Under the pieces are notes generated by a model. It did not search any database and was not told where the DNA came from. It was given only the letters and a program-made list of their open reading frames with translations. A DNA stretch of 62,817 bases, filler included. It is 4 parts of 4 records of this genome, joined end to end, with 100 filler letters (N's around TTAATTAATTAA, not from the genome) between each part and the next. Parts side by side here need not be neighbours in the genome. Positions count along the whole stretch, not along the records: positions 1 to 15,900 come from SRR16203515_1227; 3 more parts are not named here. The stretch is one strand, 5' to 3'. The position numbers and the translations under genes are program-made. Each line of letters begins with the position of its first letter. Within the stretch, counting starts at the first letter, position 1. Shown here piece by piece: positions 1 to 16,882 of the stretch.

Positions 1-576
1 CGCATCTTCTAACGCTTCACCACTGAAATAGTAGGTCGCGCCAATCTGACGAGATTTAAGAATATTACGCGTACGTTGGTGCAGGTTGTTACGCATGGTG
101 TGCTGATATTCAAAGAGTGATTCATGCCAGGTCGCGAAGTTCTCTTTGGTGAGTTCAGCAATATTGTTCTTCTTTTTGCTCTTCTTCTTTTTCTGCTTGT
201 CGTCGCTCTTAGTTGAACGCGCCTTTTTACTGTGAGTATTCGGTGCAGGTTGTGTTTCATTCGTGGCGTGTTTCTCAGCCACTGGCTGAGTTTGAGCGTG
301 GTGTTTTTTGAGTTGAACGTGGTGCTTGATGAGCCTATCAAGCATATCGAGCTGGCCTTTGGTGGGGTTTTCCAACTCAAGCAGGGTTTCAATTCTGCGC
401 GCTATCGATTCATCTATCGTTTGCTCGCGCAGCATGTCACGCCATCCGTATTTGTCAGCCCAGTGATAAAGAATTCGGGTGCTGTTCAAACCTAATTCGG
501 AAGCGATTTCTTTGGGTGTCCAAGCCTTTAAATACAGGGCTCGGGCTGCATGTCGTGTTTCGGAAGTATATGCCAT
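1..576 (-). CDS. Terminase ATPase subunit (P2 gpP-like), N-terminal 192 codons, open at the window edge
   Basis: Manual translation, absent from the ORF track: MAYTSETRHAARALYLKAWTPKEIASELGL...RNILKSRQIGATYYFSGEALEDA. Contains an N-terminal HTH-like region and the terminase Walker A motif KSRQIGAT. Confidence 0.92.
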   Translation of the reverse strand, partial: MAYTSETRHAARALYLKAWTPKEIASELGLNSTRILYHWADKYGWRDMLREQTIDESIARRIETLLELENPTKGQLDMLDRLIKHHVQLKKHHAQTQPVAEKHATNETQPAPNTHSKKARSTKSDDKQKKKKSKKKNNIAELTKENFATWHESLFEYQHTMRNNLHQRTRNILKSRQIGATYYFSGEALEDA

Positions 577-750
577 GAGCCCATCATAAGCTCTGTTAAC
601 CTCCTAAATTGCATAGCAAAGTTCGGATGGATTCCGATATCGCTCCTATCCGAATTGGTCGGAATTGAAGTGGCTGAAAGGGTCGATTCAAAGGCGTATT
701 GTGAAACCTCAAAACACGAACTGACCAATGAAAATTAGGTAAACACTCAA
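577..750. promoter_or_regulatory. Divergent late promoter region between terminase and scaffold genes
   Basis: Position matches the P2 pP/pO region. TCGGA/TCCGA pentamers at 623, 633, 649 and 659 form interleaved dyads. Confidence 0.55.
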
Positions 751-2706: not shown

Positions 2707-2710
2707 CTCT

Positions 2711-3730
2711 ATGACTGAACAGAAAACAGAAACGATCACGAAAGAAAGCACCAATGATGAAAGCTTGATGTTTAGCTTTGGTGAGCCTGAGATCATGAAT
2801 CGTGATTTTACCAACTACGATTACAGCGAGCTGTATTACAACGAGGATGGCGACTATTGGGAGCCGCCACTCGATAGAGCGGGTTTAAACAAACTGACCC
2901 GAGCCAATGCATATCATGGTTCTATCCTAATGGCTCGCCGTAATATGATCGCGGGTCGTTACACCCAAGGTGGTATGCAGAAACAACAAATGCAATCAGC
3001 GGTGCATGATTTCTTAGAGTTCGGCGATACCGCGCTGCTTAAACTGCGTAACTATTTGGGGAAAGTCGTAGGCCTTTGGCCAATTCCCACCATGTATTTA
3101 CGAAAGCGCAAAAATGGGGACTTTGTTTTTCTAGAGCGTGACAATAAGCAAAAGCGCTACAAGAAAGAAGACATCATTTTCATCAAGCAATATGACCCTG
3201 TCCAGCAAGTCTATGGTGGACCCGATTACTTGGGGTGTGTTCAATCCGCACTACTTAGCCAGGACTCCACCACCTTTCGCCGTCGTTACTATAAGAACGG
3301 TTTGCACATGGGTTTTATCTTCTACGCCACCGACCCAAACCTGAGTAAAGAAGATGAAGACGACCTAAAAGAAAAGATGGCTTCTAGCCGTGGCGTGGGC
3401 AACTTCCGTTCGATGTTCATCAATATTCCGAATGGCAATGAGAAAGGGATTCAACTTATCCCCGTCGGTGATATTGCGACAAAAGATGAATATGAAAAGA
3501 TTAAGAACGTGACTGCGCAAGAGGTGATCACTGGCCACCGCTTCCCCGTTGAGCTCGCGGCCATTATTCCTAATGGTGGTACGCGTGGCGACCCAATCAA
3601 ATTTGATTATGTTTATTGTAAGAATGAGGTGATTCCGGCCTGCGAGATGTTCATGGACGCCGTCAATGGGGATCCCGAAGTGCCGAAAAACCTGCATTTA
3701 ACCTTTAACCTCGACAACGTTGCCACGTAA
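2711..3730 (+). CDS. Portal protein (P2 gpQ/PBSX family)
   Basis: FSFGEPE, YDPVQQVYGGPDY and FRRRYYKNGLHMGFI motifs; 339 aa from the ATG at 2711, directly after the terminase stop. Confidence 0.93.
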   Translation: MTEQKTETITKESTNDESLMFSFGEPEIMNRDFTNYDYSELYYNEDGDYWEPPLDRAGLNKLTRANAYHGSILMARRNMIAGRYTQGGMQKQQMQSAVHDFLEFGDTALLKLRNYLGKVVGLWPIPTMYLRKRKNGDFVFLERDNKQKRYKKEDIIFIKQYDPVQQVYGGPDYLGCVQSALLSQDSTTFRRRYYKNGLHMGFIFYATDPNLSKEDEDDLKEKMASSRGVGNFRSMFINIPNGNEKGIQLIPVGDIATKDEYEKIKNVTAQEVITGHRFPVELAAIIPNGGTRGDPIKFDYVYCKNEVIPACEMFMDAVNGDPEVPKNLHLTFNLDNVAT

Positions 3731-4103
3731 ACACAGTGACATTTTTTGCAATTTTGTTTTTCACTGCTATTTACGCTCAGCCCTTTACCGATAAGGGCTG
3801 AAGCACTACCAAAATGATCGTTAGAAAAACACAAACGATCATTAAAAAACTGACCTAAAATACAGAAACATAAACATTTCAGTCACTTAACAAACACCAA
3901 CAGATCAATACTGATCGTCAGAATTTCAATTTATTGCAATTTTTTGCACTCTTCGCAATTTTATTAGGCACCCTGTAAGCCATTCTCAGCCCTTCAACTA
4001 TCCCCTATCCCCAGTTATTCCTAAAGGGCTCGCGGCTTATTAGCTTTCTATTACGGTAGCAGAATTTCACTGAAATAGAATTGCGAAAAAATGGGATCAA
4101 AAA

Positions 4104-4130
4104 CGTCGCAGGTGGGAAAGAGTAGTGCGT
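4104..4130 (+). other. Possible cos/packaging site
   Basis: CGTCGCAGGTGGGAAAGAGTAGTGCG loosely resembles the P2 cos GGCGAGGCGGGGAAAGCAC and lies in the non-coding region after the portal gene. Its orientation relative to the portal appears opposite to P2, so the call is uncertain. Confidence 0.3.
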
Positions 4131-4176
4131 TTTCCGTGGGTTGGGTGTGCTTTAGGTGAGGTTATGTAACAGGCGT

Positions 4177-4201
4177 AAAAAAGCCACCGGATACGGTGGC
4201 T
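4177..4201 (-). terminator. Intrinsic terminator of the cargo operon
   Basis: AGCCACCG-tatc/gata-CGGTGGCT stem followed by a T run on the minus strand, just after the 4233 stop. Confidence 0.75.
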
Positions 4202-4232
4202 GTCTGTACATGATTGCAAATTAAACTTGATA

Positions 4233-4883
4233 CTAAACTTCAAAACTCTCGGAAGATATCAAGGTTTCAATAAGCTCCTCTGATACATGTATCAAAAGAA
4301 AACCAGCACAAACGAAATAATCGACGTCATCTAATTCGATATAGCTATCACTCGCCAATTCATGAGAAAACATGTGCCTAAATGAGAATAAAGTTTCAAC
4401 ATCCTCAAAGATACTGGGACTAAAATCTCGAAGTATAGTGTCTTCATCATCAAGAACATGATTAACCTGTAAACTCTCCCTGAAGTCGATGTCTAACAAC
4501 ATAGAAAGTATGTCATTTAATGAGGAAACATTGTTTATTGAGATTGTGTGCGAAACAAGATCTCCTTTGGTTACACTAGAATCACCAAAGTATTTGGAGA
4601 TTTTCTTATTGCTTGTAACCTTGCTAGCGTTTGAAAAAAATGGTTCGCCTGAATCAATAATATCGCGTATTGCCAATCTAAAATAACCTTCGATACAACT
4701 TACAATACCAATAATAGATCCGCGTAGCAGTTCGTATTGGATGTCTTCATCTGGTATTTTTCGAATCTGATTGATTGATTCAAGTAGAGGATCAATTCGT
4801 AAAGTTAGCTGTTCCCACCTATCTTTTCCTTCATATAAATTGCTATATTTCTCTCTGATTTCTGTTACGTAGTTTCTAGCCAT
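4233..4883 (-). CDS. HEPN-like domain protein, putative RNase effector
   Basis: Helical-looking 216 aa protein from the ATG at 4883, with an N-terminal 'IVSCIEGYFR' helix and a C-terminal RHMFSH (R-x4-H) motif typical of HEPN domains. Confidence 0.65.
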   Translation of the reverse strand: MARNYVTEIREKYSNLYEGKDRWEQLTLRIDPLLESINQIRKIPDEDIQYELLRGSIIGIVSCIEGYFRLAIRDIIDSGEPFFSNASKVTSNKKISKYFGDSSVTKGDLVSHTISINNVSSLNDILSMLLDIDFRESLQVNHVLDDEDTILRDFSPSIFEDVETLFSFRHMFSHELASDSYIELDDVDYFVCAGFLLIHVSEELIETLISSESFEV

Positions 4884-4946
4884 ATTTAAATACAAAAATA
4901 GTAAACAATGAAATTGACATAAAACCAAAATGCCGACCGTGAGGAA

Positions 4947-5579
4947 TCACTCTAAAATTACTTGTTCGACTCTGCCAAACTTTTCTTCTAGCCGTTTACC
5001 TGTTAGCTCATTATGGACGTTGTCTAATTTTTCCAGATACTTTACTTGATTCCTCACTATATCTTTTAAATTAGCTGAAAGTGCCCAATTACGAACATCA
5101 TTGATCTCACCTGCGATATGACAAACTAGAGTGTTTCTTATTTTTTTACATAGACGCAACTGCACATAAAGTTCATTCACAGAGTTATAGAGCTCTTTGT
5201 CTAAGAGTGCTACATCATGAATGTGGTTCTCATACTGTTTCGTTTCTAAGTGAGTAAGCGGCATTGTTATTAAAGAGTAGTTTTCATTGTCTTCACATTC
5301 ACCGATGTGGATATATATGTAGTCATTGCCATATCGGTCTGTATTTACGGACTTCTGCACGGGTAATTCAGTATCCAAGGTAACTAGTACTTGTTCGGCG
5401 ACTCGAAATAGAGATTTTAAGGTGCTGTAATTTTCTCGTAACTCCTCTGATAGCAATATTTTAAGTGTATCAAGTTTTCTCTTACTCTCATTCCTTCCTT
5501 TAACAAAATCTCGTGATTCACGAATACAAAAAAGTACTAAAGCAACAAAAACAGACAAAGGAATAATATTTAAAATCAA
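4947..5579 (-). CDS. Hypothetical protein with N-terminal transmembrane helix (prophage cargo)
   Basis: TTG start with a GAGGGGG RBS; hydrophobic IIPLSVFVALVLFCI followed by a basic patch; AT-rich. Confidence 0.75.
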   Translation of the reverse strand: MILNIIPLSVFVALVLFCIRESRDFVKGRNESKRKLDTLKILLSEELRENYSTLKSLFRVAEQVLVTLDTELPVQKSVNTDRYGNDYIYIHIGECEDNENYSLITMPLTHLETKQYENHIHDVALLDKELYNSVNELYVQLRLCKKIRNTLVCHIAGEINDVRNWALSANLKDIVRNQVKYLEKLDNVHNELTGKRLEEKFGRVEQVILE

Positions 5580-5896
5580 CCACTAACCCCCTCAAAAAAA
5601 ATACTAACTTTATTAGACGAAAAAACCTGCGTTCAAATATAGAATTTCACACATAGCTACCTCACAAAATGATAATACACACTTTTAACATTAATAATCA
5701 ACCACTTAACTCAAGGTAATACTTCATCACGTCACAAAATACAGAATTTTTCTGCATAGTCCGACAGCTGTGGCTCATCTAGGTAAGCACGCCCACGAGA
5801 AAAACAAAAAAATATCCTCAAACCCTGAGAACTGTATAAATCCTCACCATAATTTAGTACCATGGGCTTATCATTTCGATAGGTTCATGGTGTTAT

Positions 5897-6148
5897 ATGA
5901 GAGTAATTTGCCAGGAGTGTGGCGAGAAAGCCCGCATACAAAAATCCAACCGAATTTCAGCGAGTTATAGTGATTTGTACTGCTGTTGTAGTGACCCCGA
6001 ATGCGGCCACACATTTGTAATGAATCTAAGCTTTAGCCGCACTCTTAGTCCGTCTGCTAAGACGACTTCTCAGATAGCTTTTAACCTAGTCAAAGCCCTA
6101 CCGCCAGAGCAGCGGCAAGAGCTTCAAAATCAGCTTTCCATGCTATAG
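5897..6148 (+). CDS. ogr: Ogr/Delta-like zinc-finger late activator
   Basis: CQECG...LYCCCSDPECGHTF...TLSPSA motif pattern. Confidence 0.9.
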   Translation: MRVICQECGEKARIQKSNRISASYSDLYCCCSDPECGHTFVMNLSFSRTLSPSAKTTSQIAFNLVKALPPEQRQELQNQLSML

Positions 6149-6361
6149 CGAAAACTTCGGTGTCTCTGCCTCTGCGGCCATCCTAATTATCGATTGGATG
6201 GCCTTTATTTTATCTGCGTCCAACTCGCCATTATTGTCGGCGATCAAAAGCCCCATTAAGTACACACCAACTTGCGCACTATCAGCACGGGCTTCACTCA
6301 TGGAAATACCGTCAATAATGACGTCAAGCGAGCGCTGAAACAGCATTTTCTTATAAGGCAT
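6143..6361 (-). CDS. Small phage protein downstream of rep, preceded by an SOS box
   Basis: 72 aa ORF with an AGGAG RBS and a LexA box about 35 nt upstream. Confidence 0.75.
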   Translation of the reverse strand: MPYKKMLFQRSLDVIIDGISMSEARADSAQVGVYLMGLLIADNNGELDADKIKAIQSIIRMAAEAETPKFSL

Positions 6362-6395
6362 ATCTACTCTCCTAGCAATGACACTCAGAATATTA

Positions 6396-6411
6396 CTGTA
6401 TATGCATACAG
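6396..6411. promoter_or_regulatory. LexA (SOS) box
   Basis: CTGTATATGCATACAG matches CTG-N10-CAG with a TA-rich spacer. Confidence 0.85.
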
Positions 6412-6478
6412 TGGTAAACAGGTGTTTTTAGTGATTGATTCACGTATTTGATAATTTTGTTTGGTTAGAGCCTTCATA

Positions 6479-6499
6479 AAGCCACCTTTTTAGTGGCTT
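6479..6499 (-). terminator. Probable terminator after rep
   Basis: AAGCCAC-N7-GTGGCTT hairpin downstream of the rep stop. Confidence 0.5.
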
Positions 6500-6544
6500 C
6501 CTCACCAATTTTCCTGTCCCAATACAACATGACGAATCTAGCGT

Positions 6545-9247
6545 TCACACTAAAGGCCAGTCATCAGACTCAATGATTTCTAGGTACTCACTCCACGATT
6601 TATTTGGACGTTTACTTACAGTGATGTCAGATAGATTTGGCTGTTGGTATTCGTGGTCTTCATCTTCACCGGTTAGAAGTTCAGGCTGTTTAGCCTCGAA
6701 ATCATCTAACCAGCTTAAATCTGGCTTGGGTTGGTACTCTTCAACGAGCTGGGCAGGGCGAACCGTGCCGCATGGTAGGTGCTCCGCAGGGCGGATTCTT
6801 ACACTCGTTTCATCATCTATTCGAATTGAACTGCCTTGTTGCAGCGCGATTAATGCTGAATCATCAATATTTGGCGGTAAACCACCACCTACTGAGTAAG
6901 GTTCTAATAATCGCTTAAGCTGATCGCTGACCTGTACTTTCCGCGGTAGCGTACAGTTATTGACAGAACTCCGAGAGGAATCAGAGATTCCAGAAAGAGC
7001 AAGATCAAAAGCCCCCGCTTCAGCTTCATCGCTCTTTTCAGTTTTTGTTACTATCTGCCAGGTCTTAAGACGAGTCTTAACCAACTCACCTGCAGCAATA
7101 AAACCTTCTATTTTTCGCACGTCTTCACCATGCGGAGAAGCAAACGGCAGCACCTCATAAGAGTTCGTGATCAGCAAATCTTCACGCTTAACGAACGGGC
7201 CACCCTGCCCCATGATGTAGCCTTGCCAGTTGCCATGGTCGGCCGCTTTCATTGTTCCTGCGACATTCACTTGGTCAGTACTAGCCCTCGCCTCATAGTT
7301 CTCAGCAATCACAGCCACTAGCTCTGCATTCGTCATGACATGAACCGGTTTAAACGGACCAACTAAACGGTACATAGACATAAGGTAAATAGAAGCCAGT
7401 TCTTCACGTTCTTGCTTGAAAACGTATTCCATAAAGGCTTTCTTGTTTTGGCTAGCTAGGCGGCGCAGTTCTCGGTAAGTGGTAACCGGTGCGCCACCAA
7501 AGAATTGAAATTGACGAATACCCCAACGACTCTTCCAAGCATTGACGTTTTTGGCCATCGCTTGCACAGATTGTCCGGTCTCTTTGGAAACCTCTTCACC
7601 CATGGCATAGCCATCAATGTTTTTAGAAATGTACTTAGCGATGTAGCCCGTTGCTGTGCCTTTTTCTGGGTCGATATACCCAAAGTCACAACGAGGCTGA
7701 TAATTGAATGGGCCTTGAATAGACTGCTTCTTGGCTGCTCGCTTTTCGTTGCGATCGAAGAACGGGTAAAGTTCTTCTTTGTCTTCATCAACCGCATAGC
7801 GAATAAACACGTCACGCACCTTGGCCACATGCTCAGGCTTAACCCAAATCAGCAAATGCCAGTGCGGAGTACCATCATGATGTGGCTCAGCAACGCGAAT
7901 ACCAAACCAACGAATCTCATCACGGCCTAACTTGGCACGAATGCGCTGCCAAACCTTATTCAAATAAGTTTGTGCTTCACGTGGGCTCGCCCCGTTCCAG
8001 TGAGGAATGAAGCCGCCTTTCTTATAGCTATTATGGTATTTCGATGGTGTTGTCAGCGTTAAGAACAAACCTTGTAGGCCAAGTTCGTTGCCAATATCTT
8101 CACAACCACGACAACGAACCATTAACTCATGACGACGAATAGCAGGGTTCGACATGCTCTTTAAGACCATGTCCTCCATTTCAACTTCTTCGCCTGTCGT
8201 TTCTTCTTGAAGTAAGTGGCCTTGAATAAAGTCCCAGCTCTTCTTTTGCTGAACTTGATGCTCTTGAATGCAGTCCCATGAAGCATAAGGTGATGCTTTC
8301 GCCGACACTTGACCCATCGCGATAGCTAAGTGCTCGCGCATAATTTTACGAATGCGCTTTAAACGTCTAAACCACCACTTTTCACAACTCAACTTAGAGA
8401 TAAACGACATGATGTTTTCAGGCGTAATCTTCTTGTCTTCGCTTGGCGTTTTTATCCCAAAGCTACGCACCAAAGAAACGCACTGCTTGTAAACCATTAA
8501 TGCCGCGATGTTCTCACCGTTCTCGGTTTCACATTCAATTGATTGAGTTATTATCGTTTGGTATCGAATTAAGATAGACACAATTCTAAATGCCATATCT
8601 CGCAGTTCATCTTCAAGCAACTCGGCAATGATTTTGGAGCGAACCGGCTTACGGTTTTTCTCGGCTTGTTCGAAGTCGAAACAGGCTTGCTGATTCGCTT
8701 GCTTAAAGTTGTTTTGCTGAGGGCTGCTTTCGACATCGACAGCATCACTCAGCAAAGCAACCTTAGAAGTAGTAGGAAGTTGTTTGTATTGCTCTAGCAC
8801 CAACAGAACACGCCTGTGCGCGGGTACCATTTTTTCACGAATGAAAGTGTTTGCGGCAAAACGTCCTTGCTTCTTGAAGATCGAAACATAGCGATTGGCG
8901 AAATACTTAGTCAGGTAATGTGGAAGGCCAGAAAAGTGTCCAGATAGCCATTCTCGATCGGCTGGGTTTACTTCATATAATTTACGCTCAACAACGGAAA
9001 GATTTTCAGGCTCACGATCGAACACCTGGCGAGAAGACAAAGCCAAGTTGTCTGGGATTGGGGTAACTGCTTGTTCACCACCTACCCATTCAAGAAAGGC
9101 TTCATGTGATCGCTCTTGTTGCTGTTCATTAAATTCAATGCTGCTGATATCAACATCTTGATACCACGAAATAAGGCGCTCACCAGAAGTTTGAACCTTC
9201 TGAAGTGAGCGCCTGCTTTTCTTGGATGCGTAAGTTGATAAACTCAT
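6545..9247 (-). CDS. Rolling-circle replication initiator (P2 gpA family)
   Basis: FLTLTTPSKYH, HUH motif EPHHDGTPHWH, two-tyrosine YIAKYISKN, WGIRQFQFFG. Confidence 0.95.
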   Translation of the reverse strand: MSLSTYASKKSRRSLQKVQTSGERLISWYQDVDISSIEFNEQQQERSHEAFLEWVGGEQAVTPIPDNLALSSRQVFDREPENLSVVERKLYEVNPADREWLSGHFSGLPHYLTKYFANRYVSIFKKQGRFAANTFIREKMVPAHRRVLLVLEQYKQLPTTSKVALLSDAVDVESSPQQNNFKQANQQACFDFEQAEKNRKPVRSKIIAELLEDELRDMAFRIVSILIRYQTIITQSIECETENGENIAALMVYKQCVSLVRSFGIKTPSEDKKITPENIMSFISKLSCEKWWFRRLKRIRKIMREHLAIAMGQVSAKASPYASWDCIQEHQVQQKKSWDFIQGHLLQEETTGEEVEMEDMVLKSMSNPAIRRHELMVRCRGCEDIGNELGLQGLFLTLTTPSKYHNSYKKGGFIPHWNGASPREAQTYLNKVWQRIRAKLGRDEIRWFGIRVAEPHHDGTPHWHLLIWVKPEHVAKVRDVFIRYAVDEDKEELYPFFDRNEKRAAKKQSIQGPFNYQPRCDFGYIDPEKGTATGYIAKYISKNIDGYAMGEEVSKETGQSVQAMAKNVNAWKSRWGIRQFQFFGGAPVTTYRELRRLASQNKKAFMEYVFKQEREELASIYLMSMYRLVGPFKPVHVMTNAELVAVIAENYEARASTDQVNVAGTMKAADHGNWQGYIMGQGGPFVKREDLLITNSYEVLPFASPHGEDVRKIEGFIAAGELVKTRLKTWQIVTKTEKSDEAEAGAFDLALSGISDSSRSSVNNCTLPRKVQVSDQLKRLLEPYSVGGGLPPNIDDSALIALQQGSSIRIDDETSVRIRPAEHLPCGTVRPAQLVEEYQPKPDLSWLDDFEAKQPELLTGEDEDHEYQQPNLSDITVSKRPNKSWSEYLEIIESDDWPLV
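6951..6978 (-). other. P2-type replication origin inside the A gene (predicted nick between 6972 and 6971)
   Basis: Minus strand CCTCTCG/GAGTTCTGTCAATAACTGTAC closely resembles the P2 ori CCTCG/GAGTCCTGTCAATAACTGTAC. Confidence 0.8.
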
Positions 9248-9287
9248 GCTGGGCGTAGGCTAGCTTCTTTTAATGCGGCCTGTATTT

Positions 9288-9509
9288 TCATGCAGCCACC
9301 TCGACAAATATCACTTCTGGTTTCTTCTTCTTTTCTTCTAACGTAGCCAGAATCTCTTTTACTTTGTCGTCATAAACACTCAAATACAGGTTTGCCCCAG
9401 CAAGGCTCCAAGCCGTTTGAACTCGCTGTTTCTTCCCAAAACCACAAAAGAAGCGATCACCAATTTTTATCGCTACTGCTTGTTTTTGCGCTTGCTTGTA
9501 AAAACTCAT
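9288..9509 (-). CDS. Phage early-operon hypothetical protein
   Basis: 73 aa; ATGA overlap with the upstream ORF. Confidence 0.7.
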   Translation of the reverse strand: MSFYKQAQKQAVAIKIGDRFFCGFGKKQRVQTAWSLAGANLYLSVYDDKVKEILATLEEKKKKPEVIFVEVAA

Positions 9510-9736
9510 AAGCTGCTAAACTCCTGCGTATCCATGATCATGTGACCGCCAGTGTGATTACCTCTGATGATCACGCCTTTCAAAACGTGATGGCATTTGA
9601 ACAACTCGCAAGCCGTATCAATCGCTGGCTCTCGTGATTCAAACTCACCCAGCAACACGTTCTTCACTTCGTTGGTTTCATCATGGCGAACAACACCGCC
9701 ACCGCTATTCAGGGCAACTGCTACATAACTCAGCAT
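9506..9736 (-). CDS. Phage early-operon hypothetical protein
   Basis: 76 aa from the ATG at 9736; TGATG coupling to the upstream gene. Confidence 0.7.
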   Translation of the reverse strand: MLSYVAVALNSGGGVVRHDETNEVKNVLLGEFESREPAIDTACELFKCHHVLKGVIIRGNHTGGHMIMDTQEFSSL

Positions 9737-10149
9737 CAGCAAGCCCCCACTGCCGATAAACAAAACTGCTCAAATTGATATAACGCTTCATCATCAAAGT
9801 GGCCTAAATCACGGAGGCCAAGCATTTCAAGAAATAGATGGCGGTTACTCATATCTAGGTTCGCCCAATGGTGAAGTTGCGAAACTTGTTCAATTGAACC
9901 GTTGCGGTACCAGCTTGGGAATGAATGGCCAAAGAACACACGGGCGCGATCGCTTTCCATTGCTTCTTTGATATCGGCCAACACTTCTTCTTGTGGGCGG
10001 TGGGTTTCGATCGGCTCTTGCTTCTTTGCGATAGCGTCAAGTTGAATCAAAACTTGGTGTTGCTGCTCTTGATTACTTGAATTAAAGCGCTCTGCAATTT
10101 GGTTAAAAGACTGACTAAATAGGTGTTTTTCAATATTGCTCATCATCAA
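9736..10149 (-). CDS. Phage early-operon hypothetical protein
   Basis: About 137 aa with a GAGG RBS; operonic with rep. Confidence 0.75.
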   Translation of the reverse strand: MMMSNIEKHLFSQSFNQIAERFNSSNQEQQHQVLIQLDAIAKKQEPIETHRPQEEVLADIKEAMESDRARVFFGHSFPSWYRNGSIEQVSQLHHWANLDMSNRHLFLEMLGLRDLGHFDDEALYQFEQFCLSAVGAC

Positions 10150-10168
10150 TTCCTCAAATTTTGAATAT

Positions 10169-10209
10169 AAAAAACCCTCCCTCTTTAAATCAAAGAGGGA
10201 TAAAGGGTG
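10169..10209 (-). terminator. Intra-operon terminator/attenuator in the early lytic operon
   Basis: TCCCTCTTT/AAAGAGGGA stem followed by GGGTTTTTT on the minus strand. Confidence 0.55.
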
Positions 10210-10253
10210 TAGGCAAAATGCCTAGTGGCTAGGTTGGCTTGGGTGTAACTGGG

Positions 10254-10547
10254 TTATGACCAGCGCGAAAGAACATCCTTTGCGTTGGCATCAATGCGGT
10301 TAATTTCACGTGAAAGGCGCATTTGTTCAGCGCGGCAATCACTCTTGGAATACTGAGCTTGTAACTCTTCACGCTTTGAGCGAAGTGGCTTTAACTGGCG
10401 CTCGCCAAGTTCTCTCCTTGTGCGCTGCAAGGCTGAAAGGCCACGTTGTTTTTGCTCGCGGTTTAAAGACCAACAAGGCAAATCAGGGCATGGGTTTTCT
10501 AGTGGTGGTACATTTACGATTGAAGGTTCTACTGTTGCAACTGACAT
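10254..10547 (-). CDS. Phage early-operon hypothetical protein
   Basis: 97 aa with a GAGG RBS, directly after cII. Confidence 0.7.
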   Translation of the reverse strand: MSVATVEPSIVNVPPLENPCPDLPCWSLNREQKQRGLSALQRTRRELGERQLKPLRSKREELQAQYSKSDCRAEQMRLSREINRIDANAKDVLSRWS

Positions 10548-10558
10548 ACAAAATTCCT

Positions 10559-11098
10559 CTAACTTAAGCCGGGGATTGGTGCACCGTTAGCGATAAAGTC
10601 GACACCCATACTTAAAAATGGGGTTACGCCCGTAGTGCGGTTTTCTAACTGAGACATAAGCAAAACCAAATTACCGATAGCGGCTTGAGCTTTTGCAATG
10701 GCCTTACGTCTATCGCTTCTGTATAAGCGGTCTGCATTGCACATCTTCAATGCATCGCTAGACAGCTCACCAGACAGGACCGAATTTTCGAGAATGCGTT
10801 CAACGAACGTTTTTGATTCTTCTTCACTGGGCACTTTTGCCACGACTACACCTAAATCGGCCAGTACGGTGTTAATGATGGTGTAGTCGCCCGTTTCCTT
10901 GCTGATGATTGCCAAATCGACAGGCGTTAACTTGTATTGTTGCTCTGGGTTTAGCTTGCTGCGTAACACCGTTGCATTCAAACCGATGCGCTTAGCAAGC
11001 TTTTCAATATTGTGATTGAGTACAAAGTCACGACACGCAGCGTCAAAAGCATTCTGTTTACACTCACGTAATTCGCACATAGCTACTTTATTATTCAT
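10559..11098 (-). CDS. cII: CII-family regulator (186/HP1 type)
   Basis: AFDAACRDF...LAKRIGLNATVLRSKLNPEQQYKLT motif; position after cox. Confidence 0.88.
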   Translation of the reverse strand: MNNKVAMCELRECKQNAFDAACRDFVLNHNIEKLAKRIGLNATVLRSKLNPEQQYKLTPVDLAIISKETGDYTIINTVLADLGVVVAKVPSEEESKTFVERILENSVLSGELSSDALKMCNADRLYRSDRRKAIAKAQAAIGNLVLLMSQLENRTTGVTPFLSMGVDFIANGAPIPGLS

Positions 11099-11110
11099 AT
11101 ACGACACTCT

Positions 11111-11206
11111 CTATAGGAAAGGCGGAACGAGAATGACGACCCAAGCGAACAAATGGAGCCAACTTGGGCAGAAATTCTTAGTCGGAATAAGGGCAGAAAA
11201 AGCCAT
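11111..11206 (-). CDS. 31-aa hydrophobic peptide between cox and cII
   Basis: Manual translation MAFSALIPTKNFCPSWLHLFAWVVILVPPFL; starts 2 nt after the cox stop and fills the gap. Confidence 0.5.
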   Translation of the reverse strand: MAFSALIPTKNFCPSWLHLFAWVVILVPPFL

Positions 11207-11208
11207 GA

Positions 11209-11421
11209 TTAGCCCAACTTCTCTAAGGCTTCACGAGATGCAATTTCCATCATGGCAATAACATTAACCATAGGGATTTCATTTTTTGCCGCTTTAGGGC
11301 GAATGATTAGCTTGTTGTTTTCCATGTCTTTACGGAGTGTCGAAAGGGATACGCCTGAATAGCGAGAATACTCTTCAATACGCATATATGGGACAGGGGG
11401 CGATAGTGCAAATGACAACAT
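11209..11421 (-). CDS. cox: Cox/Apl-like excisionase and repressor
   Basis: 70 aa winged-HTH-like sequence (PYMRIEEYSRYSGVSLSTLR...IIRPK...VNV), divergent from cI, AAGGA RBS. Confidence 0.8.
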   Translation of the reverse strand: MLSFALSPPVPYMRIEEYSRYSGVSLSTLRKDMENNKLIIRPKAAKNEIPMVNVIAMMEIASREALEKLG

Positions 11422-11574
11422 GATGATATCCTTACAAGTTAATTTATTGAGAGTCAGGCTTACTTGGTTAGCTGCCGTGGTTAAGCTTGAGTACAAGAAA
11501 GATTATTGATCCATTTTTGAGCTCTGTAAAGACATTAAAGTGGTTTGTGATCGCAAAAATGGTTTCAAGACGCT
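11422..11574. promoter_or_regulatory. Lysis/lysogeny switch region
   Basis: Between divergent cox and cI; 9-bp inverted repeat CCATTTTTG (11511) / CAAAAATGG (11554). Confidence 0.6.
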
Positions 11575-12228
11575 ATGAATAAAATTTTACCGTTTGAATA
11601 TTTAAAGGGAGAGGCTTTTACAGAGAGGCTTAAAACGCTCACTGGAAAGAAAACTCTTTTAGAAATGTCTGAATTATTTGATGTTAAAAAATCCACTTTT
11701 AGCACTTGGAATACTCACGACAGAACGTCACATGAATTGATGGTTCGCTTACATTTAGCTTTAGGCATTCCAATCGAAGAGCTTGCGCTCCCTGAAGAAG
11801 AACGAGCAAAGCTACCAAGTCACCAACCAAAAACAATTATAGAGCAGCCTTCAGTTCAAATAACGGCAGCAAGCACAAACCCACAGCACCAAACTGTGAT
11901 TGTGAAAAGTTTTTGCTTAAGCGGTGGCAAGTTGATTGATACTGGTGAAATCCCGTACCCACTAAGAAGAATTAATAGCTTAGGCTTAAAGCAAGCGAAA
12001 TTGATTGAAATAGAGACTAACGAGGCTATCTTTTTACTTGATAAAAGCATGACAGATGCACTTCGCGGTAACTACTTAATAGATATTGATGGGCACCTGT
12101 CTATCAATCGTATTCAACGTCTACCAGGAAAGAAGCTGGCAATTGCATTTGATGACAGCACGATTGAGGTATCCGACGAAGATATCCAAGTGATTGGTTA
12201 CATTGCAGCAACGTTGAAGAAAGACTAA
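11575..12228 (+). CDS. cI: CI immunity repressor (186-type HTH plus C-terminal domain)
   Basis: N-terminal HTH (LLEMSELFDVKKSTFSTW) and C-terminal GNYLIDIDG...IQRLPGKKL typical of 186/HP1 CI. Confidence 0.88.
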   Translation: MNKILPFEYLKGEAFTERLKTLTGKKTLLEMSELFDVKKSTFSTWNTHDRTSHELMVRLHLALGIPIEELALPEEERAKLPSHQPKTIIEQPSVQITAASTNPQHQTVIVKSFCLSGGKLIDTGEIPYPLRRINSLGLKQAKLIEIETNEAIFLLDKSMTDALRGNYLIDIDGHLSINRIQRLPGKKLAIAFDDSTIEVSDEDIQVIGYIAATLKKD

Positions 12229-12242
12229 ATATAAATGACCCT

Positions 12243-12791
12243 ATGGCTAGGTATATTATGGAAAATGGATTTATTTGTACTTATCTATCACAGAGAAATA
12301 GGTTAAGTATTCAAAACTTAAATAAAACTCAAGTCACTGTTAATGAGTGTGATGAACCCACGCATATCCAAGGTTGGTGCTTACGCAATGGTTCTCCACG
12401 AACTTTACGGGTCGATCACATCCTTGATATTCACAATTCAATTCAAGAAGCTGAAGCCTTCTTTAAAGAAGCTGAAGCGAAACTGACTGAATGTAATTTT
12501 GAATTTGAAGTCGGACGTTCTGCAAATGCCAGCCGTTACTCAAGCCCTGAAACATTGGATATCTGCTTTACGGGTTTCAAAAAAACCGATAAGGGAGAAC
12601 TAACTGCGTTAGCAAAAGATAACGGTATGGCTGTCCGTGGTGAAGTGACTAAACACTTAGATATCCTCTGCTACGGCTACAACGCTGGTCCTAAAAAGCT
12701 AGAAAAAGCGATGTCGCAGGGTGTAATGATTTTAAATAAGCATCAGCTTGAAACCATGATTGAAACTGGTGAAGTCCCAGAAGACGTATAA
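12243..12791 (+). CDS. WYL-like plus BRCT domain protein
   Basis: N-terminal IQGWCLRNGSPRTLRVDHI resembles the WYL core; C-terminal ICFTGF...VTKHLDILCYGYNAGPKKLEKA...GVMIL is a ligase-type BRCT. Confidence 0.75.
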   Translation: MARYIMENGFICTYLSQRNRLSIQNLNKTQVTVNECDEPTHIQGWCLRNGSPRTLRVDHILDIHNSIQEAEAFFKEAEAKLTECNFEFEVGRSANASRYSSPETLDICFTGFKKTDKGELTALAKDNGMAVRGEVTKHLDILCYGYNAGPKKLEKAMSQGVMILNKHQLETMIETGEVPEDV

Positions 12792-12869
12792 TTACAATAT
12801 GATTTAGATGTTCAATGAAGGCATTCAAGTTGTAAGAAAAGTAGCAATCGAGATAAGGAAGAGTTAATT

Positions 12870-13043
12870 ATGAACCAGTTTACGGAATTAGTTGGTATGA
12901 AGTCTTACCTTCAAAAACACCTTAACGCCCCCGTAAACTGGGTCGCGTTCATCAAAGAACATAACATGAGCGTAGAAGAACAAAAGTACTGGCGTGATCA
13001 CTTCAATTTAGATCACCCCTTCGAAGGGCAGCTTGAAGCGTAG
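12870..13043 (+). CDS. 57-aa hypothetical protein
   Basis: Manual translation MNQFTELVGMKSYLQKHLNAPVNWVAFIKEHNMSVEEQKYWRDHFNLDHPFEGQLEA with an AAGGAAG RBS; below the ORF-track cutoff. Confidence 0.6.
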   Translation: MNQFTELVGMKSYLQKHLNAPVNWVAFIKEHNMSVEEQKYWRDHFNLDHPFEGQLEA

Positions 13044-13445
13044 AGGGGATGTAATCACAATGCGATCTGCTGATAGCAAACACGTTTTTGCCCCATTGTT
13101 AGATAGACCTTTTACTCACTCACATCCTGTTCATTGGGTTTTGCCCTACTGGAAGTTATCCATTCTTATAATGCTGTTCTTCGTTAATCCCCGAGTTGTA
13201 TCACGGGGGTAAATTCGACTGAACTATCAGCTCTCACATAACCCTGCTCTACTTGCACGCTTGCACTGTCATAAATCAAATTAATTCAACTTAACTAACT
13301 GCCTAGACTATAAGCAATTGTTAGTTAATGAAAATTTCGAGTAGAATTGTCTTGATATGGTACTTGAGAAATAATGTTCACTATGAAACTTTGTGAACCT
13401 CTTTAGTAGGCTTTATGAATCATTTGGAACTTCGAGACATAATTA

Positions 13446-14210
13446 ATGAAAGACGTATTTAAATCACTAAAAGAAAACGCAACTTCTCGTCTTAAAAACC
13501 CTGTGGTTGGTGCCTTCGCTCTTTCTTGGTGCGCCTTGAACATAAATGGGCTTACCATTTTTATGCTCTCGGGTACTTCAGATAAGATAAATATAGTTTC
13601 GAATAAGGTATGGTCACTAAATGAAGATGTTCTTTTCCCTTTATTCATCGCAATTCTTTATTTGCTCTTGCTACCGTTACTGAACTTGGCTTATGAACTT
13701 ATAAATGATGGCGTCATCAACTCCTTTCGACATAGAAGGCAAAATAATGCTGATAAAGAACGTTTCCTACAACAGAAATCTACAGTCGGTGCTAAGATTG
13801 AAGCTGATGAAGAATTTATAAGAAAACTGAAAGACCAAGAGGTCGAAAATTGGCTTCAAGAAAAAGCAATACGAAGCAAACAAATGATTGATCAAAAAGC
13901 AAAATATGCAGAACTTTTTCAGTCTTCATCTGAAAAAGAACAAACGTTTTATCAATCTCGTTCTGAGCTAAACAACATGATTGAGTCTTTGAAAAAGGCT
14001 CTTTCACAATTAGAACAACAGTTTAATCATTCCGAACAAGAAGCTGCTTCTAAGTCTACCTATCTAGACGATACTTTGGTAAATATGTCCAAAGTTATTG
14101 ATAGCCTTGCAGACTCGAATCACGACTCAAGAGCAGAACTCAAAGAGCTAGCATCTGATATCTGGAATATCAGGAGTAAATTTGGCATATGGGACGACAT
14201 ACCATTTTAA
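13446..14210 (+). CDS. Two-TM plus coiled-coil protein ending in an SSB-like DDIPF tail
   Basis: RLKNPVVGAFALSW TM1, LFPLFIAILYLLLLPLL TM2, long heptad-rich region, C-terminus ...GIWDDIPF-stop. Confidence 0.8.
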   Translation: MKDVFKSLKENATSRLKNPVVGAFALSWCALNINGLTIFMLSGTSDKINIVSNKVWSLNEDVLFPLFIAILYLLLLPLLNLAYELINDGVINSFRHRRQNNADKERFLQQKSTVGAKIEADEEFIRKLKDQEVENWLQEKAIRSKQMIDQKAKYAELFQSSSEKEQTFYQSRSELNNMIESLKKALSQLEQQFNHSEQEAASKSTYLDDTLVNMSKVIDSLADSNHDSRAELKELASDIWNIRSKFGIWDDIPF

Positions 14211-14252
14211 TCTCGTGAACATTTCCTACGGTTTTTTATAATGCCACACATT

Positions 14253-14282
14253 AAAAAGCCGGACTCAATGAGCCCGGCTTCT
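14253..14282 (-). terminator. Intrinsic terminator, copy 1 of a repeated hairpin
   Basis: Minus strand AAGCCGGGCTC-ATT-GAGTCCGGCTTTTT after the 14307 stop. Confidence 0.75.
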
Positions 14283-14306
14283 CTTAGCTTGCTAAAACAC
14301 TTTGCT

Positions 14307-14714
14307 TTACTCTTCTAAGCTTAGCTTTATCTTAAATAGCTTTTTCCCAAATGTAGTATCAGAAATCACTTCTGAAATTGTGGCTTCAAAAGCACTCTTA
14401 TCGAAAGCTGTTTCATCCATAGCTTGATAATTAACATTTACTGGGTAACCGTCTTCAGACATCTTTATTTTGAAAAGTCTTTCTGGACGTTGTCCATCGA
14501 TAGCTAAATCAACAAAATCCCAGCCAGTATTGATAAAAGATAGTGACCCTGGTTTCATCGCTTTCTGGTTAACTAACTCCACTGAACAATCTACTTCTAG
14601 ATAGTTTTGCAACACATCAGAAAGATCTTTTAGAACACTTAAAATTTCCTGTTTGTTAGCTGCTGCATTTTCAGCTGCTGCAATGCCTTTAGTAAATGCG
14701 TCTTGTAAAATCAT
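14307..14714 (-). CDS. Hypothetical 135-aa partner of the EEP nuclease
   Basis: ATGA overlap with the upstream EEP gene implies translational coupling. Confidence 0.8.
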   Translation of the reverse strand: MILQDAFTKGIAAAENAAANKQEILSVLKDLSDVLQNYLEVDCSVELVNQKAMKPGSLSFINTGWDFVDLAIDGQRPERLFKIKMSEDGYPVNVNYQAMDETAFDKSAFEATISEVISDTTFGKKLFKIKLSLEE

Positions 14715-15697
14715 AGTTTAGCCTTGTGAAAAATTGGGTTAATGATACTGCTAAATACCGGATAGTGGTCAAACGTTCTCTTGGACTTTTCGAGTTCATT
14801 TTTAATTAATGGAAGCTCAATAACTTTACTTTCTTGTTCATCCAAATACCATGGTCCTTTGTCAGTTACGAAGCATGATGAAAAAACAATTTGGTCAAAC
14901 ATATAGTAACATTGGGGCTGTTTCGCTGTACTTGCGTGGTAGTAGCTGCCAACAATTTTGGGGGTTTTGTTCTTCATGTAACAATAAGGTTGTGCAGAAT
15001 ATGTAACTCTTGCAAATGGGTTATAGAAAAAACTTTCTGGTTTTTTTCTAACCGCGCTGTAGCACTTACTGGCCAACATGTAACTTAGTAATGACTCATT
15101 TGCAGGTTCATCATTAAAGTCCCCCATTGCGATTACTTGATTACCATTCTCAACTTGCTCAAGAGCTAAATCAGCTATTCTGGTTGCTTTTGCAATACGC
15201 TCTTTTTCATTCCCGGATAATCTAGATTGCCAGTGGCACAAGTAAATGCAAAATATATTACCATTTGAGATTTCAGTAACTTTAACCATTAAGCCAGCTC
15301 GTAGTTTTTCTTGGCCACTAAATCTGGCAGTTATCGCTGACTCAAAGGAAACAGTGAACCGATCTGCATTGTAGATCAATCCAAAATCAAACCAACTTTG
15401 CCCTATTTGGCTACCACTAGTTGCTTTAACTAAATCCAGTATTTTATAGGATGGGTGTGTTATTCCTAAGTGTTTAGAAATATGTACTATATTGTCGCTA
15501 TAGAGCTCACATAGCCCTACAAGGTGAGAACGACTGACCAGTTCATCAATAACTTGCAATGCTAAGTCTAACTTTTGTTGAGTGCATTTCCCTTTACATT
15601 TTGCAACTGGTGGCGTTAAGCCTGAATTCCAAAATGAGAGATTAATTCTTGCAGGCAACAATGAAAAACTAAAATCTATATCTTGATTAAATGTCAT
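14711..15697 (-). CDS. Endonuclease/exonuclease/phosphatase (EEP) family protein
   Basis: FWN, GLCE, CHWQS, MGDFND, FDQIVFS and FDHYPV catalytic motifs. Confidence 0.88.
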   Translation of the reverse strand: MTFNQDIDFSFSLLPARINLSFWNSGLTPPVAKCKGKCTQQKLDLALQVIDELVSRSHLVGLCELYSDNIVHISKHLGITHPSYKILDLVKATSGSQIGQSWFDFGLIYNADRFTVSFESAITARFSGQEKLRAGLMVKVTEISNGNIFCIYLCHWQSRLSGNEKERIAKATRIADLALEQVENGNQVIAMGDFNDEPANESLLSYMLASKCYSAVRKKPESFFYNPFARVTYSAQPYCYMKNKTPKIVGSYYHASTAKQPQCYYMFDQIVFSSCFVTDKGPWYLDEQESKVIELPLIKNELEKSKRTFDHYPVFSSIINPIFHKAKL

Positions 15698-15845
15698 TTT
15701 ATTTTGATAAAATAGTATCTTAGGGCAAGTGTACCATGCTGTAACTTAGCTGAGGTACAATAAAATGCACCAAGTCCTCCTCTAAATGGATTCAGCTTAA
15801 TATAGCCCCAATCCGTTAGCATTGATGGTTCAAATTTTATATATA

Positions 15846-15875
15846 AAAAAGCCGAACTCGATCAGTCCGGCTTCT
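15846..15875 (-). terminator. Intrinsic terminator, copy 2 of the repeated hairpin
   Basis: Minus strand AAGCCGGACT-GATCG-AGTTCGGCTTTTTT; 26/30 identical to 14253-14282. Confidence 0.7.
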
Positions 15876-15900
15876 TTCTCCTTGATATGACCAAAAAGGA

Positions 15901-16000
15901 NNNNNNNNNNNNNNNNNNNNNNNNNNNNNNNNNNNNNNNNNNNNTTAATTAATTAANNNNNNNNNNNNNNNNNNNNNNNNNNNNNNNNNNNNNNNNNNNN
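15901..16000. other. Artificial contig linker
   Basis: N run with a central TTAATTAATTAA (stops in all six frames). Confidence 0.98.
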
Positions 16001-16882
16001 AACGTAAAAAGCTACGTTAGAGTGGTTGAAGAAGGCAGTTTTAATGGCGCTGCGCGTAAACTCAATACCACCAGCTCAGCGATCAGCAAAAGAGTAAACT
16101 GGCTGGAAGAGCGCATTGGCACTCAACTTTTAAAGCGTACCACTCGCTCAATTAGCCAAACCGAAGCAGGCGCACTCTTCTATCAAAGAGCAAAAGATCA
16201 GCTCGATAATTGGCAGTCGATCATTGATGAGACTCGTTCGGTCAACCAAACCCCAGCGGGCTTGCTCAAGATAGGCGCGACCATCGCGGTTGGCTCTAAG
16301 TTTCTTGTGCAATACATGGACGACTTCTTAGAAAAGTACCCTGATATTAAGGTACAACTCATCACCACTACGCCCGGTCAATTACCCGAGCTTGGCTTGG
16401 ACTTGGTAATCAGTCGTGAACTAGAACAACTCAACTCATTAAGCTTCAAGAAAACACCTCTGTTCGAGCATAGAGCCAGCTTCTATGCAGCACCAAGCTA
16501 TCTTGCCAAACACGGCTACCCCACTTGCGAGCAAGATTTGGAGCAACACAACTCGTTAATTTGGGGAGAGCGTCCGACCCGTGAAGTAGCACTCACCAAA
16601 GGGCAGCGAATCACGTTAAACGGTAACTTTGCCACCACCAATCCAGAGGCGTTATTTCATGCGGCGAAGCGCGGAATGGGCGTATTGTTAACCATCAAAG
16701 CGATGATCAAAGAAGATCTCAAACAAGGGACATTAGTTCCAGTATTGCCAAATATAACAGCAGACGAAGTGATGGTTTACGCGTACTACCCTAAGCTTGA
16801 TTACTCACACACTCGAACCAAGCTGTTTTTGGATCACCTCAAAGAGAGATTGGACCGAGAGCGAAGCACTCAGATTCTGTGA
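16001..16882 (+). CDS. LysR-family transcriptional regulator (5' truncated)
   Basis: VEEGSFNGAARKL...SAISKRVNWLEERIGTQLLKRTTRS HTH; frame open from the contig start. Confidence 0.92.
   Translation, partial: NVKSYVRVVEEGSFNGAARKLNTTSSAISKRVNWLEERIGTQLLKRTTRSISQTEAGALFYQRAKDQLDNWQSIIDETRSVNQTPAGLLKIGATIAVGSKFLVQYMDDFLEKYPDIKVQLITTTPGQLPELGLDLVISRELEQLNSLSFKKTPLFEHRASFYAAPSYLAKHGYPTCEQDLEQHNSLIWGERPTREVALTKGQRITLNGNFATTNPEALFHAAKRGMGVLLTIKAMIKEDLKQGTLVPVLPNITADEVMVYAYYPKLDYSHTRTKLFLDHLKERLDRERSTQIL

Follow-up and report, generated by a model that had tools for sequence, protein, structure and literature searches.

The Target Gene and Its Predicted Product

The window analyzed here is a stretch of 62,817 nucleotides (nt), filler included, made of four parts of four records joined end to end, of which positions 1–15,900 come from record SRR16203515_1227. 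These positions carry a K139/Kappa/PV94-like (P2-type) Vibrio prophage. Identified in it are a gpA initiator, CII, and a Cox/Apl-like gene as well as a CI repressor; downstream of the repressor gene, on the same strand, lies a gene encoding 254 amino acids (aa) that we call the target. Its open reading frame (ORF) is open throughout from an ATG start to a TAA stop at 14208–14210. An earlier note, made from the letters of this stretch, had described the product as a membrane protein with two transmembrane helices and a coiled coil, ending in WDDIPF. The final WDDIPF is confirmed at 14190–14207, within the C-terminus ...SKFGIWDDIPF. We propose that this end mimics the carboxyl tip of SSB, the host's single-stranded DNA-binding protein, and that it is carried on a membrane-anchored stalk. 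The parts of the gene are listed below, with the basis of each assignment in brackets.

13446–14210 (+): whole target gene, 254 aa (P0001), putative SSB-tip mimic on a membrane-anchored stalk (34 homologues; PHROGs matches)
13446–13502 (+): residues 1–19, basic amphipathic N-terminal helix with an RLKNP motif at its end (alignment, model)
13503–13568 (+): residues 20–41, first membrane segment, GAF..SW..N.NG, moderately hydrophobic (hydropathy, conservation, model)
13569–13616 (+): residues 42–57, short predicted periplasmic loop with a small helix (alignment, hydropathy, model)
13617–13697 (+): residues 58–84, second transmembrane helix, strongly hydrophobic (hydropathy, conservation, model)
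13698–13850 (+): residues 85–135, conserved juxtamembrane cytoplasmic helix with RHRR and a KSTVGAKIEADEEFIRKLKD block (end of the family-wide N-terminal module)
13851–14183 (+): residues 136–246, helical stalk, variable in sequence and heptad-periodic from about residue 156 (alignment, model, periodicity test)
14184–14207 (+): residues 247–254, GIWDDIPF, putative disordered SSB-tip mimic: aromatic, acidic, I-P-F-COOH (sequence, alignment, model)

Hydropathy bears out the two membrane segments, at residues ~20–41 and ~58–86, with Kyte-Doolittle 19-mer maxima of 1.57 and 2.46, respectively. A net charge of +3 lies ahead of the first segment and the RHRR cluster follows the second, and both termini are thus predicted by the positive-inside rule to be cytoplasmic. 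From this pattern we strongly infer that the two-segment N-terminal module inserts the target in the inner membrane with both ends facing the cytoplasm. AlphaFold2 models built with 35 and with 141 sequences (mean pLDDT 80.6 and 93.6) are both all-helical. In the latter, helices span residues 2–16, 19–31, 33–41, 44–52, 58–120, 122–223, and 229–245. The first membrane segment is kinked at N32, and the second runs unbroken into the stalk, such that residues 58–223 form a nearly continuous helix onto which the helix at 229–245 packs back. Residues 246–254 are non-helical (block pLDDT 60).

The coiled-coil-like region of the earlier note holds for the distal half of the stalk only. Heptad periodicity is clear for residues ~156–250 (mean a/d excess 0.371, compared with 0.28 ± 0.038 in shuffles, of which 9 of 500 reach the observed value), and the proximal stalk is instead a long charged helix. 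At 1.5 Å per residue, we estimate that the helical stalk of ~165 residues measures about 25 nm. The reported absence of an OB fold agrees with our searches, as no PF00436 match was found in the target at E ≤ 0.01 and the models are all-helical. No Pfam family matches the target above its cut-off.

Conservation of the Carboxyl End and Its Match to Host SSB

Several lines of evidence suggest that the end of the target is more than a chance likeness. A first homology search returned 34 proteins, and every named one is from Vibrionaceae. Conservation of the tail among homologues had been set beforehand as the refuting test of the earlier proposal, and the resulting alignment (A1) has 35 rows, of which the 28 full-length ones without exception finish in [IT]PF after [WF] and two or three acidic residues. 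The other seven rows are five fragments (177–221 aa) that stop within the stalk and two distant enterobacterial-type proteins. Across 24 non-redundant rows the mean pairwise identity is 0.80 over the last 6 residues and 0.30 over residues 191–246, and this near-constancy beside a divergent stalk argues that the tail is not there by chance. Total length is tight within each tail-bearing group (247–257 aa in the target's clade and 262–271, 217–229, and 271–286 aa in the others); stalk length is therefore kept within clades while stalk sequence varies.

The full end of Escherichia coli SSB is MDFDDDIPF. The DDDIPF hexapeptide is described as the conserved SSB docking motif and a hub for SSB-interacting proteins (PMC5872125). 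In six Vibrionaceae genomes (G001, G297, G324, G349, G392, and G124) SSB ends in ..YNEPPMDFDDDIPF (..PQYNEPPMDFDDDIPF), and in a seventh (G002) in ..DMPDFDDDIPF. These host SSBs share their ..MDFDDDIPF-type end with the disordered acidic tip of the target (..GIWDDIPF), the common features being an aromatic residue, an acidic run, I/L-P-F, a free carboxylate, and a disordered segment. The target differs in that it has W for F and two acidic residues instead of three. Furthermore, its tip sits on a membrane-anchored helical stalk, unlike the Gly/Gln/Pro-rich linker of SSB, and it has neither an OB fold nor another single-stranded DNA (ssDNA)-binding domain and hence is no SSB.

The closest match between tail and host is found in a sister group, clade B, whose members are ~31–43% identical to the target in the N-terminal part. 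Their C-termini read ..PQYLEPPMDFDDDIPF, ..PQYKEPPMDFDDDIPF, ..NSYNEPPMDFDDDIPF, or ..EPYNEPLMDFDENIPF; by locus, the ends are ..PQY[LK]EPPMDFDDDIPF or ..NSYNEPPMDFDDDIPF (L023, L024, L025, and P0208) and ..EPYNEPLMDFDENIPF (L010). Clade B thereby bears the exact host SSB end (..EPPMDFDDDIPF), with 12–16 terminal residues identical to the SSB end of the same or sister genomes. The member in a V. parahaemolyticus cassette array (P0208) has the same 13 terminal residues. At the DNA level the clade-B tail resembles the SSB gene by eye over the last ~45 nt, and 44/78 and 47/78 positions agree over the last 78 nt. The N-terminal part occurs in 32 of 401 Vibrionaceae species genomes, in proteins of 181–516 aa. 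One of the genomes named above (G124) also holds a second SSB copy on a short contig (L090, G124:C188:2-472) in which ..PMDFDDDIPF is followed by 15 more residues before the stop; this internal tip may reflect the edge of an assembly, a fusion, or inactivation of the tail.

Among Bacteroidota, SSB ends in ..DSDDLPF (G402) or ..EENDDLPF (G458), and the family member of G458 itself ends in ..ESQDELPF. An LPF end is found in 18 of 25 matches to P0154, and those with names come from Chryseobacterium, Flavobacterium, Flagellimonas, and Reichenbachiella. In a sample of 401 Bacteroidota genomes, the family is present in 10 and the tail on 1 of 11 family ORFs. Judged from these ends, the tail appears to follow host lineage, being IPF in Vibrionaceae and LPF in Bacteroidota. 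Conservation within the clade, the identity between clade-B and SSB ends, and the IPF/LPF switch thus support the claim that the C-terminal end is an SSB-tip mimic, and we regard a real mimic as strongly supported at the level of sequence. From the same comparisons we strongly infer that the tip is under strong selection and matched to the SSB of the host lineage.

A Large Family with Variable Distal Parts

To place the tail in its family we used a tail-blind profile, built from the N-terminal 135 residues only and run against 1.84 billion representatives. It recovers 6095 clusters at E ≤ 1e-3, 2808 of them at E ≤ 1e-10 as well, and the match always spans residues 1 to ~130. Among the best 150 of the 6095, 22 of the 134 clusters of at least 200 aa end in PF (10 as IPF and 8 as LPF), compared with 0.1% expected from composition, and an acidic residue occupies one of the positions −6 to −4 in 20 of these 22. 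In a tree of the N-terminal module from 204 unique proteins of at least 200 aa, with 18 shorter ones left out, 54 are tailed and at least nine gains or losses of the tail are required.

The module itself is strikingly constant. Across 141 diverse members R15 is invariant, and P19, G22, F24, W28, N32, P65, Y72, and P77 are present in at least 90%; W56 is invariant inside the target's clade. By this measure, the N-terminal module seems to be conserved far beyond the needs of an anchor. No enzymatic domain was found in the 141 members, and none of 455 candidates is a longer fused form of the module, which is weak evidence. The C-terminal parts vary: some are SSB tips, some are other recurrent short ends, and further ones are an FKBP domain or an unassigned Bacteroidota domain.

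Several of these other ends were noted individually. A Vibrionaceae member (L039:1474-2445, +) carries an FKBP-type prolyl isomerase C-terminal domain (E 1.7e-13) and no tail, and a second (L044:1501-2739, +) has a weaker FKBP-type match (E 7.6e-4) that falls below the cut-off; the FKBP-type domain may be another host-factor-like distal module. A subgroup of 366–379 aa (P0041, P0042, P0053, P0060, and P0071; L027 and L029) shares a recurrent ..[IMLV]W[DEN] carboxyl end, and L033 ends in ..DEQKSLF, which we take to resemble the sliding-clamp-binding pentapeptide. Both could possibly be further short-motif ends.

Searches of family databases gave little by way of function. The target matches phrog_4780 (E 8.8e-23, residues 1–233) and phrog_13369 (E 7.4e-16), and all PHROGs families that the module matches (these two and phrog_35327) are of unknown function; a Klebsiella phage member (P0036) scores 3.3e-111 in the same search. 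PADLOC-DB v2.0.0 (5027 models) gave no match for the target at E ≤ 0.01 and none for the relatives in L002 and L060–L064. Pfam families of membrane effectors, exclusion proteins, or holins, of which SLATT and SieB are examples, match neither the target nor 7 + 19 + 141 relatives. Foldseek returned no match in BFVD or the Protein Data Bank (PDB) at E ≤ 1e-3, and VIA-align found generic coiled coils only (Z ≤ 7.6), in rows spanning residues 112–249 that barely cover the N-terminal module. The best E value in a PDB sequence-profile search was 0.063, and matches in the ESM Atlas are "hypothetical protein" clusters only.

The Prophage and Its Cargo Slot

The following features surround the target in the window.

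11575–12228 (+): CI repressor, upstream in the lysogenic operon and co-oriented with the target
12243–12791 (+): BRCT-domain protein, directly after cI, 58% identical to PV94 gp04
13186–13266 (+): conserved ~80-nt element with the hairpin CCCCG-10 nt-CGGGG, at the start of a variable cargo slot (shared sequence, contig divergence)
14257–14279 (no strand): inverted repeat AGCCGG-11 nt-CCGGCT separating convergent genes, preceded by an A5 run and followed by TCTCTT

The operon in the window has the order cI, BRCT homologue, 57-aa ORF, ~80-nt hairpin element, and target. In K139 the order of the lysogenic operon is cI, BRCT gene, glo, and int, and in PV94 it is cI, BRCT homologue, gp03, and int. 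By this comparison the target occupies the slot of the K139 exclusion gene glo, which is annotated in the K139 record as "involved in phage exclusion". No integrase gene was found after the cI operon in the window, unlike in K139 and PV94. The BRCT gene is conserved in K139 (orf2) and PV94 (gp04), matches the PHROGs "DNA ligase" BRCT families, and has a weak match to PADLOC PDC-S48 (E 1.1e-6).

We place the start of the variable cargo slot at the ~80-nt element because RNA-library contigs of related prophages match the window up to 13094–13219 and then diverge. Filamentous Vibrio phage records (e.g., PQ189292) also contain the element, with identity reaching 91.8%, and there it stands ahead of an unrelated 260-aa gene. 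It may be a site of cargo exchange or a regulatory element in shared use; an Rfam search of 12800–16000 gave no match. Four marine RNA-library runs contain contigs that span cI, the BRCT gene, and the 57-aa ORF (11500 to ~13220). These derive from related prophages, and none lies over 13333–15700, making them uninformative on expression of the target. A promoter scan returned 8 sites where 9.5 were expected. No direct repeats flank the copy in the window, which is thus not integron-cassette-like here.

Downstream of the target lies a convergent two-gene pair (14307–15697, −), comprising a 328-aa protein of the endonuclease/exonuclease/phosphatase family (PF19580, E 8e-19) and, with a 4-nt overlap, a 135-aa protein without an assigned family that weakly matches phrog_10179. 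Neither has a PADLOC match, and the pair is a candidate for a second cargo system in this slot. The inverted repeat at 14257–14279, read from the sequence and not flagged by a consensus terminator scan, is likely a terminator shared by the convergent genes.

Elsewhere in the element, a pair at 4233–5579 (−) downstream of the gpA gene comprises a RiboL-PSP-type HEPN protein (PF18735, E 4e-7) and a 210-aa partner, with no PADLOC match; we take its position to correspond to the tin/old cargo hotspot of the P2 layout. A 651-aa ORF (751–2706) joins the N-terminal part of a gpO scaffold protease to terminase-large domains. The right end of the element is unreadable at 15901–16000, where runs of N at 15901–15944 and 15957–16000 surround TTAATTAATTAA, which the header of the window gives as filler between joined parts, and the host LysR gene lies beyond. 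The prophage (1–3730 and 12800–16020) looks rearranged or grounded.

Genomic Contexts of Relatives

Relatives of the target are carried by P2-like, PM2-like, lambdoid, epsilon15-like, and filamentous phages, by Vibrio superintegron cassettes, and by defence islands, and in the contexts examined the family gene is always a lone gene. A conserved partner gene was sought and rejected, since no neighbour is common to the eight contexts examined. The gene is a moron, on the opposite strand or co-oriented with the repressor, in one lambdoid Klebsiella phage, in two epsilon15-like phages, in a PM2-like prophage, and in a filamentous Vibrio phage.

The superintegron copy at L002:5338-6081 lies between ~120-nt repeats at 5193–5313 and 6089–6179. 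P0208 (L098) lies in a same-strand V. parahaemolyticus cassette array that includes DUF3265, and L064 is a cassette-type array in which no repeats were detected. Among the chromosomal islands, one copy is located 274 nt from ShosA/ShosT (ShosT and ShosA matches with E 1e-91 and 8e-89), beside a type I-F CRISPR-associated transposon (CAST). Other island copies are near PDC-S50, SoFic, PDC-S52, AbiJ, and a kinase with weak PD-T4-6/mad6 matches. As far as gene order can indicate, this context is consistent with a role in defence or exclusion.

In the filamentous Vibrio phage (L094:8075-8716 and 8971-9603) a tail-less member (P0183, 210 aa) directly follows a gene annotated with DUF2726, and together they make up a small accessory block, with the assembly genes on one side and the regulators on the other.

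Proposed Mechanism and Alternatives

Slot, orientation, carriers, and neighbours together make a role in conflict between mobile elements the best-supported one. We propose, tentatively and at somewhat short of an even chance, that the target is an exclusion or abortive-infection moron expressed in the lysogen, with the SSB tip as bait on a stalk and the membrane module as output. It would be an accessory gene in the lysogenic-operon cargo slot of a K139/P2-like Vibrio prophage, and its stalk would display a disordered copy of the host SSB tip in the cytoplasm. The tip could then dock in the SSB-tail pockets of SSB-interacting proteins, and its clients would presumably belong to invading phages or other mobile elements and rely on the SSB tail of the host; examples are single-strand annealing recombinases and replisome or primosome loaders. 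Most speculatively, binding of a client by the stalk end would be coupled to the conserved membrane module and would lead to exclusion or to abortive infection, protecting the lysogen population. In a study of phage 80alpha, efficient annealing by Sak is described as needing the C-terminal tail of the phage's own SSB, and phage recombinases as targets of several defence systems (PMC11846896).

A decoy or a trigger, as the earlier note had suggested, is plausible. A decoy acting purely by competitive capture looks weak, because host SSB tails are abundant competitors for any client and because, in a published E. coli fragment screen, the sole inhibitory Ssb fragment peak is at residues 52–81 and not at the C-terminal tail (PMC10769210). 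The toxicity of free tail peptides was separately considered and rejected, given that no inhibitory peak at the Ssb C-terminus appears in that screen. Because the module is constant and the distal part variable, a common output with exchangeable inputs can be envisaged. It is possible, if rather doubtful, that the N-terminal module defines a large family of "bait-display" immune proteins of mobile elements in which capture at the bait switches on the membrane module. Each member would then offer a copied host factor on a cytoplasmic stalk, be it the SSB tip, an FKBP-type domain, or another short end.

Several points weigh against a bait coupled to a membrane effector. About five in six family clusters are tail-less, from which it follows that the core function of the family would be independent of the tail. 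A monovalent tip would be a weak competitor, and any effect must therefore need localization, avidity, or signalling; the tail of the target, moreover, has one acidic residue fewer than that of SSB. The first membrane segment is only moderately hydrophobic, and the module has no recognizable likeness to a known pore or effector by Foldseek or VIA-align, such that the effector role is deduced solely from conservation and modularity. There is no match to a Pfam, PADLOC, or NCBI-named family, and no characterized homologue was found. Finally, the defence-gene neighbourhoods are suggestive only.

The same tail could instead serve recruitment. In a scaffold without a membrane effector, the tip would tether host SSB-interacting enzymes at the inner membrane (candidates are exonuclease I, RecJ, RecQ, PriA, chi, primase, and others), where they would attack or mis-process incoming phage, conjugative, or transforming DNA or be kept from a competitor's replication, and the N-terminal module would be a localization device that binds a conserved membrane partner. 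Tail conservation and the match to host SSB fit this model equally well. A stalk of clade-constant length and free sequence would suit a spacer or ruler, exonuclease I is encoded by Vibrio hosts, the single-gene cassettes show no toxin-like feature or immunity partner, and a fraction of the client pool would suffice, so that competition from SSB matters less. We nevertheless consider a pure scaffold unlikely: polar and aromatic membrane residues conserved from Vibrio to Bacteroidota would be unexplained without a conserved partner, of which none is known, and members with FKBP or other ends are a poor fit to nuclease recruitment. A selfish function is less probable still. The protein might organize the element's own replication at the membrane, or act as a sink that keeps SSB-dependent nucleases off single-stranded rolling-circle intermediates. 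Single-stranded or rolling-circle intermediates are used by several carriers, the carriers also include a filamentous phage and integron cassettes, and both the prophage in the window and the PM2-like prophage in L063 have a gpA-type initiator. The combination of membrane anchor, coiled coil, and C-terminal binding module also recalls, by analogy, p16.7 of phi29, a membrane organizer of phage DNA replication. The phage copies, however, are co-oriented with the repressor or oppose the lytic operons, in the manner of morons and unlike replication genes; other copies lie in chromosomal islands and CAST-associated cargo that have no replicon of their own, and the filamentous-phage member is tail-less.

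Two further explanations differ in how they read the tip. The target might guard the SSB system, with its tip held in the resting cell by a host protein, either the OB fold of free SSB or an SSB-interacting protein, until an ssDNA flood or a phage inhibitor releases it and the membrane module is activated. Other systems that monitor host repair proteins are known to follow guard logic, and the evidence on tail and modularity fits this model too; SSB-centred sensing is also common in recent defence papers (Retron-Eco8, DRT4, and DARNA). The guard model is purely conceptual, however, and no observation separates release from capture. Set against it as well, binding of the SSB tip to the OB fold is weak, and we rate a guard as improbable. 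Alternatively, the PF end might be a degradation or sorting tag or an oligomerization cap that resembles SSB by convergence, as the poorly acidic ends of some clade-C members (..PRGEFPF, ..LPEHMPF, and ..NFSLPF) could suggest. The identity of 12–16 residues to the host SSB end in clade B, the IPF/LPF switch that tracks host phylum, and the excess of PF ends in the family over the 0.1% expected all speak against convergence, which we regard as very improbable.

Comparison with Known Systems

The nearest positional counterpart of the target is Glo of K139. Both occupy the same slot, co-oriented after cI and the BRCT gene of a K139/PV94-like prophage, and both are envelope-associated accessory proteins. 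They differ in that no sequence similarity was detected between them (best BLASTP E 0.47), Glo is annotated as a periplasmic protein of 137 aa, and the slot in the window is not followed by an integrase gene. Single-gene membrane proteins that act in exclusion or abortive infection include SieA and SieB of P22, RexB of lambda, and gp15 of HK97. The target resembles these proteins as a lone, small, membrane-anchored accessory gene of a temperate phage that is independent of the lytic operons, and its relatives are found among known defence genes. No model of such a family matches the target, however, and its cytoplasmic stalk of ~165 residues is unusual among them; we know of no protein of this type with a copy of a host hub peptide. 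p16.7 likewise has its membrane anchor at the N-terminus, followed by a coiled coil and a C-terminal module to which replication components bind, but no homology was detected, and the orientation and contexts of the target suggest expression in the lysogen and not in the early lytic phase.

Retron-Eco8, DRT4, DARNA, and Stl2 of SaPI2 (PMC11846896 for Stl2) are described as acting at the same node of ssDNA, SSB, and recombinase. They use dedicated folded sensors with output via nucleases, RNases, or repressors, whereas the proposed sensor of the target is a copied host peptide and its sole conserved candidate output is the membrane module. Our literature searches turned up no paper that names the locus tags of the homologues or phrog_4780, and no carrier of an SSB tip that is membrane-anchored or other than SSB. 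One preprint reports a small transmembrane V. vulnificus superintegron cassette that protects against T4.

Implications

The SSB tip is the docking peptide of the bacterial machinery of replication, restart, recombination, and repair, and phage recombinases use SSB tails too. Mobile elements appear to have repeatedly copied this tip onto a membrane-anchored protein that does not bind DNA and to have kept it matched to the host. Such short-linear-motif mimicry on membrane proteins of mobile elements suggests a so far undescribed mechanism by which replication and repair proteins may be baited or hijacked. The finding also gives a handle on a very large uncharacterized family, represented by the 6095 clusters. 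Should these proteins display baits, they would constitute an integrated-decoy immune sensor in bacteria, and the first in which a host hub peptide is the bait. A function in defence would represent a new sensing principle, and a selfish one a route to the SSB hub for such elements. In both cases, proteins with the tail would be natural probes for the readers of SSB tails during infection.

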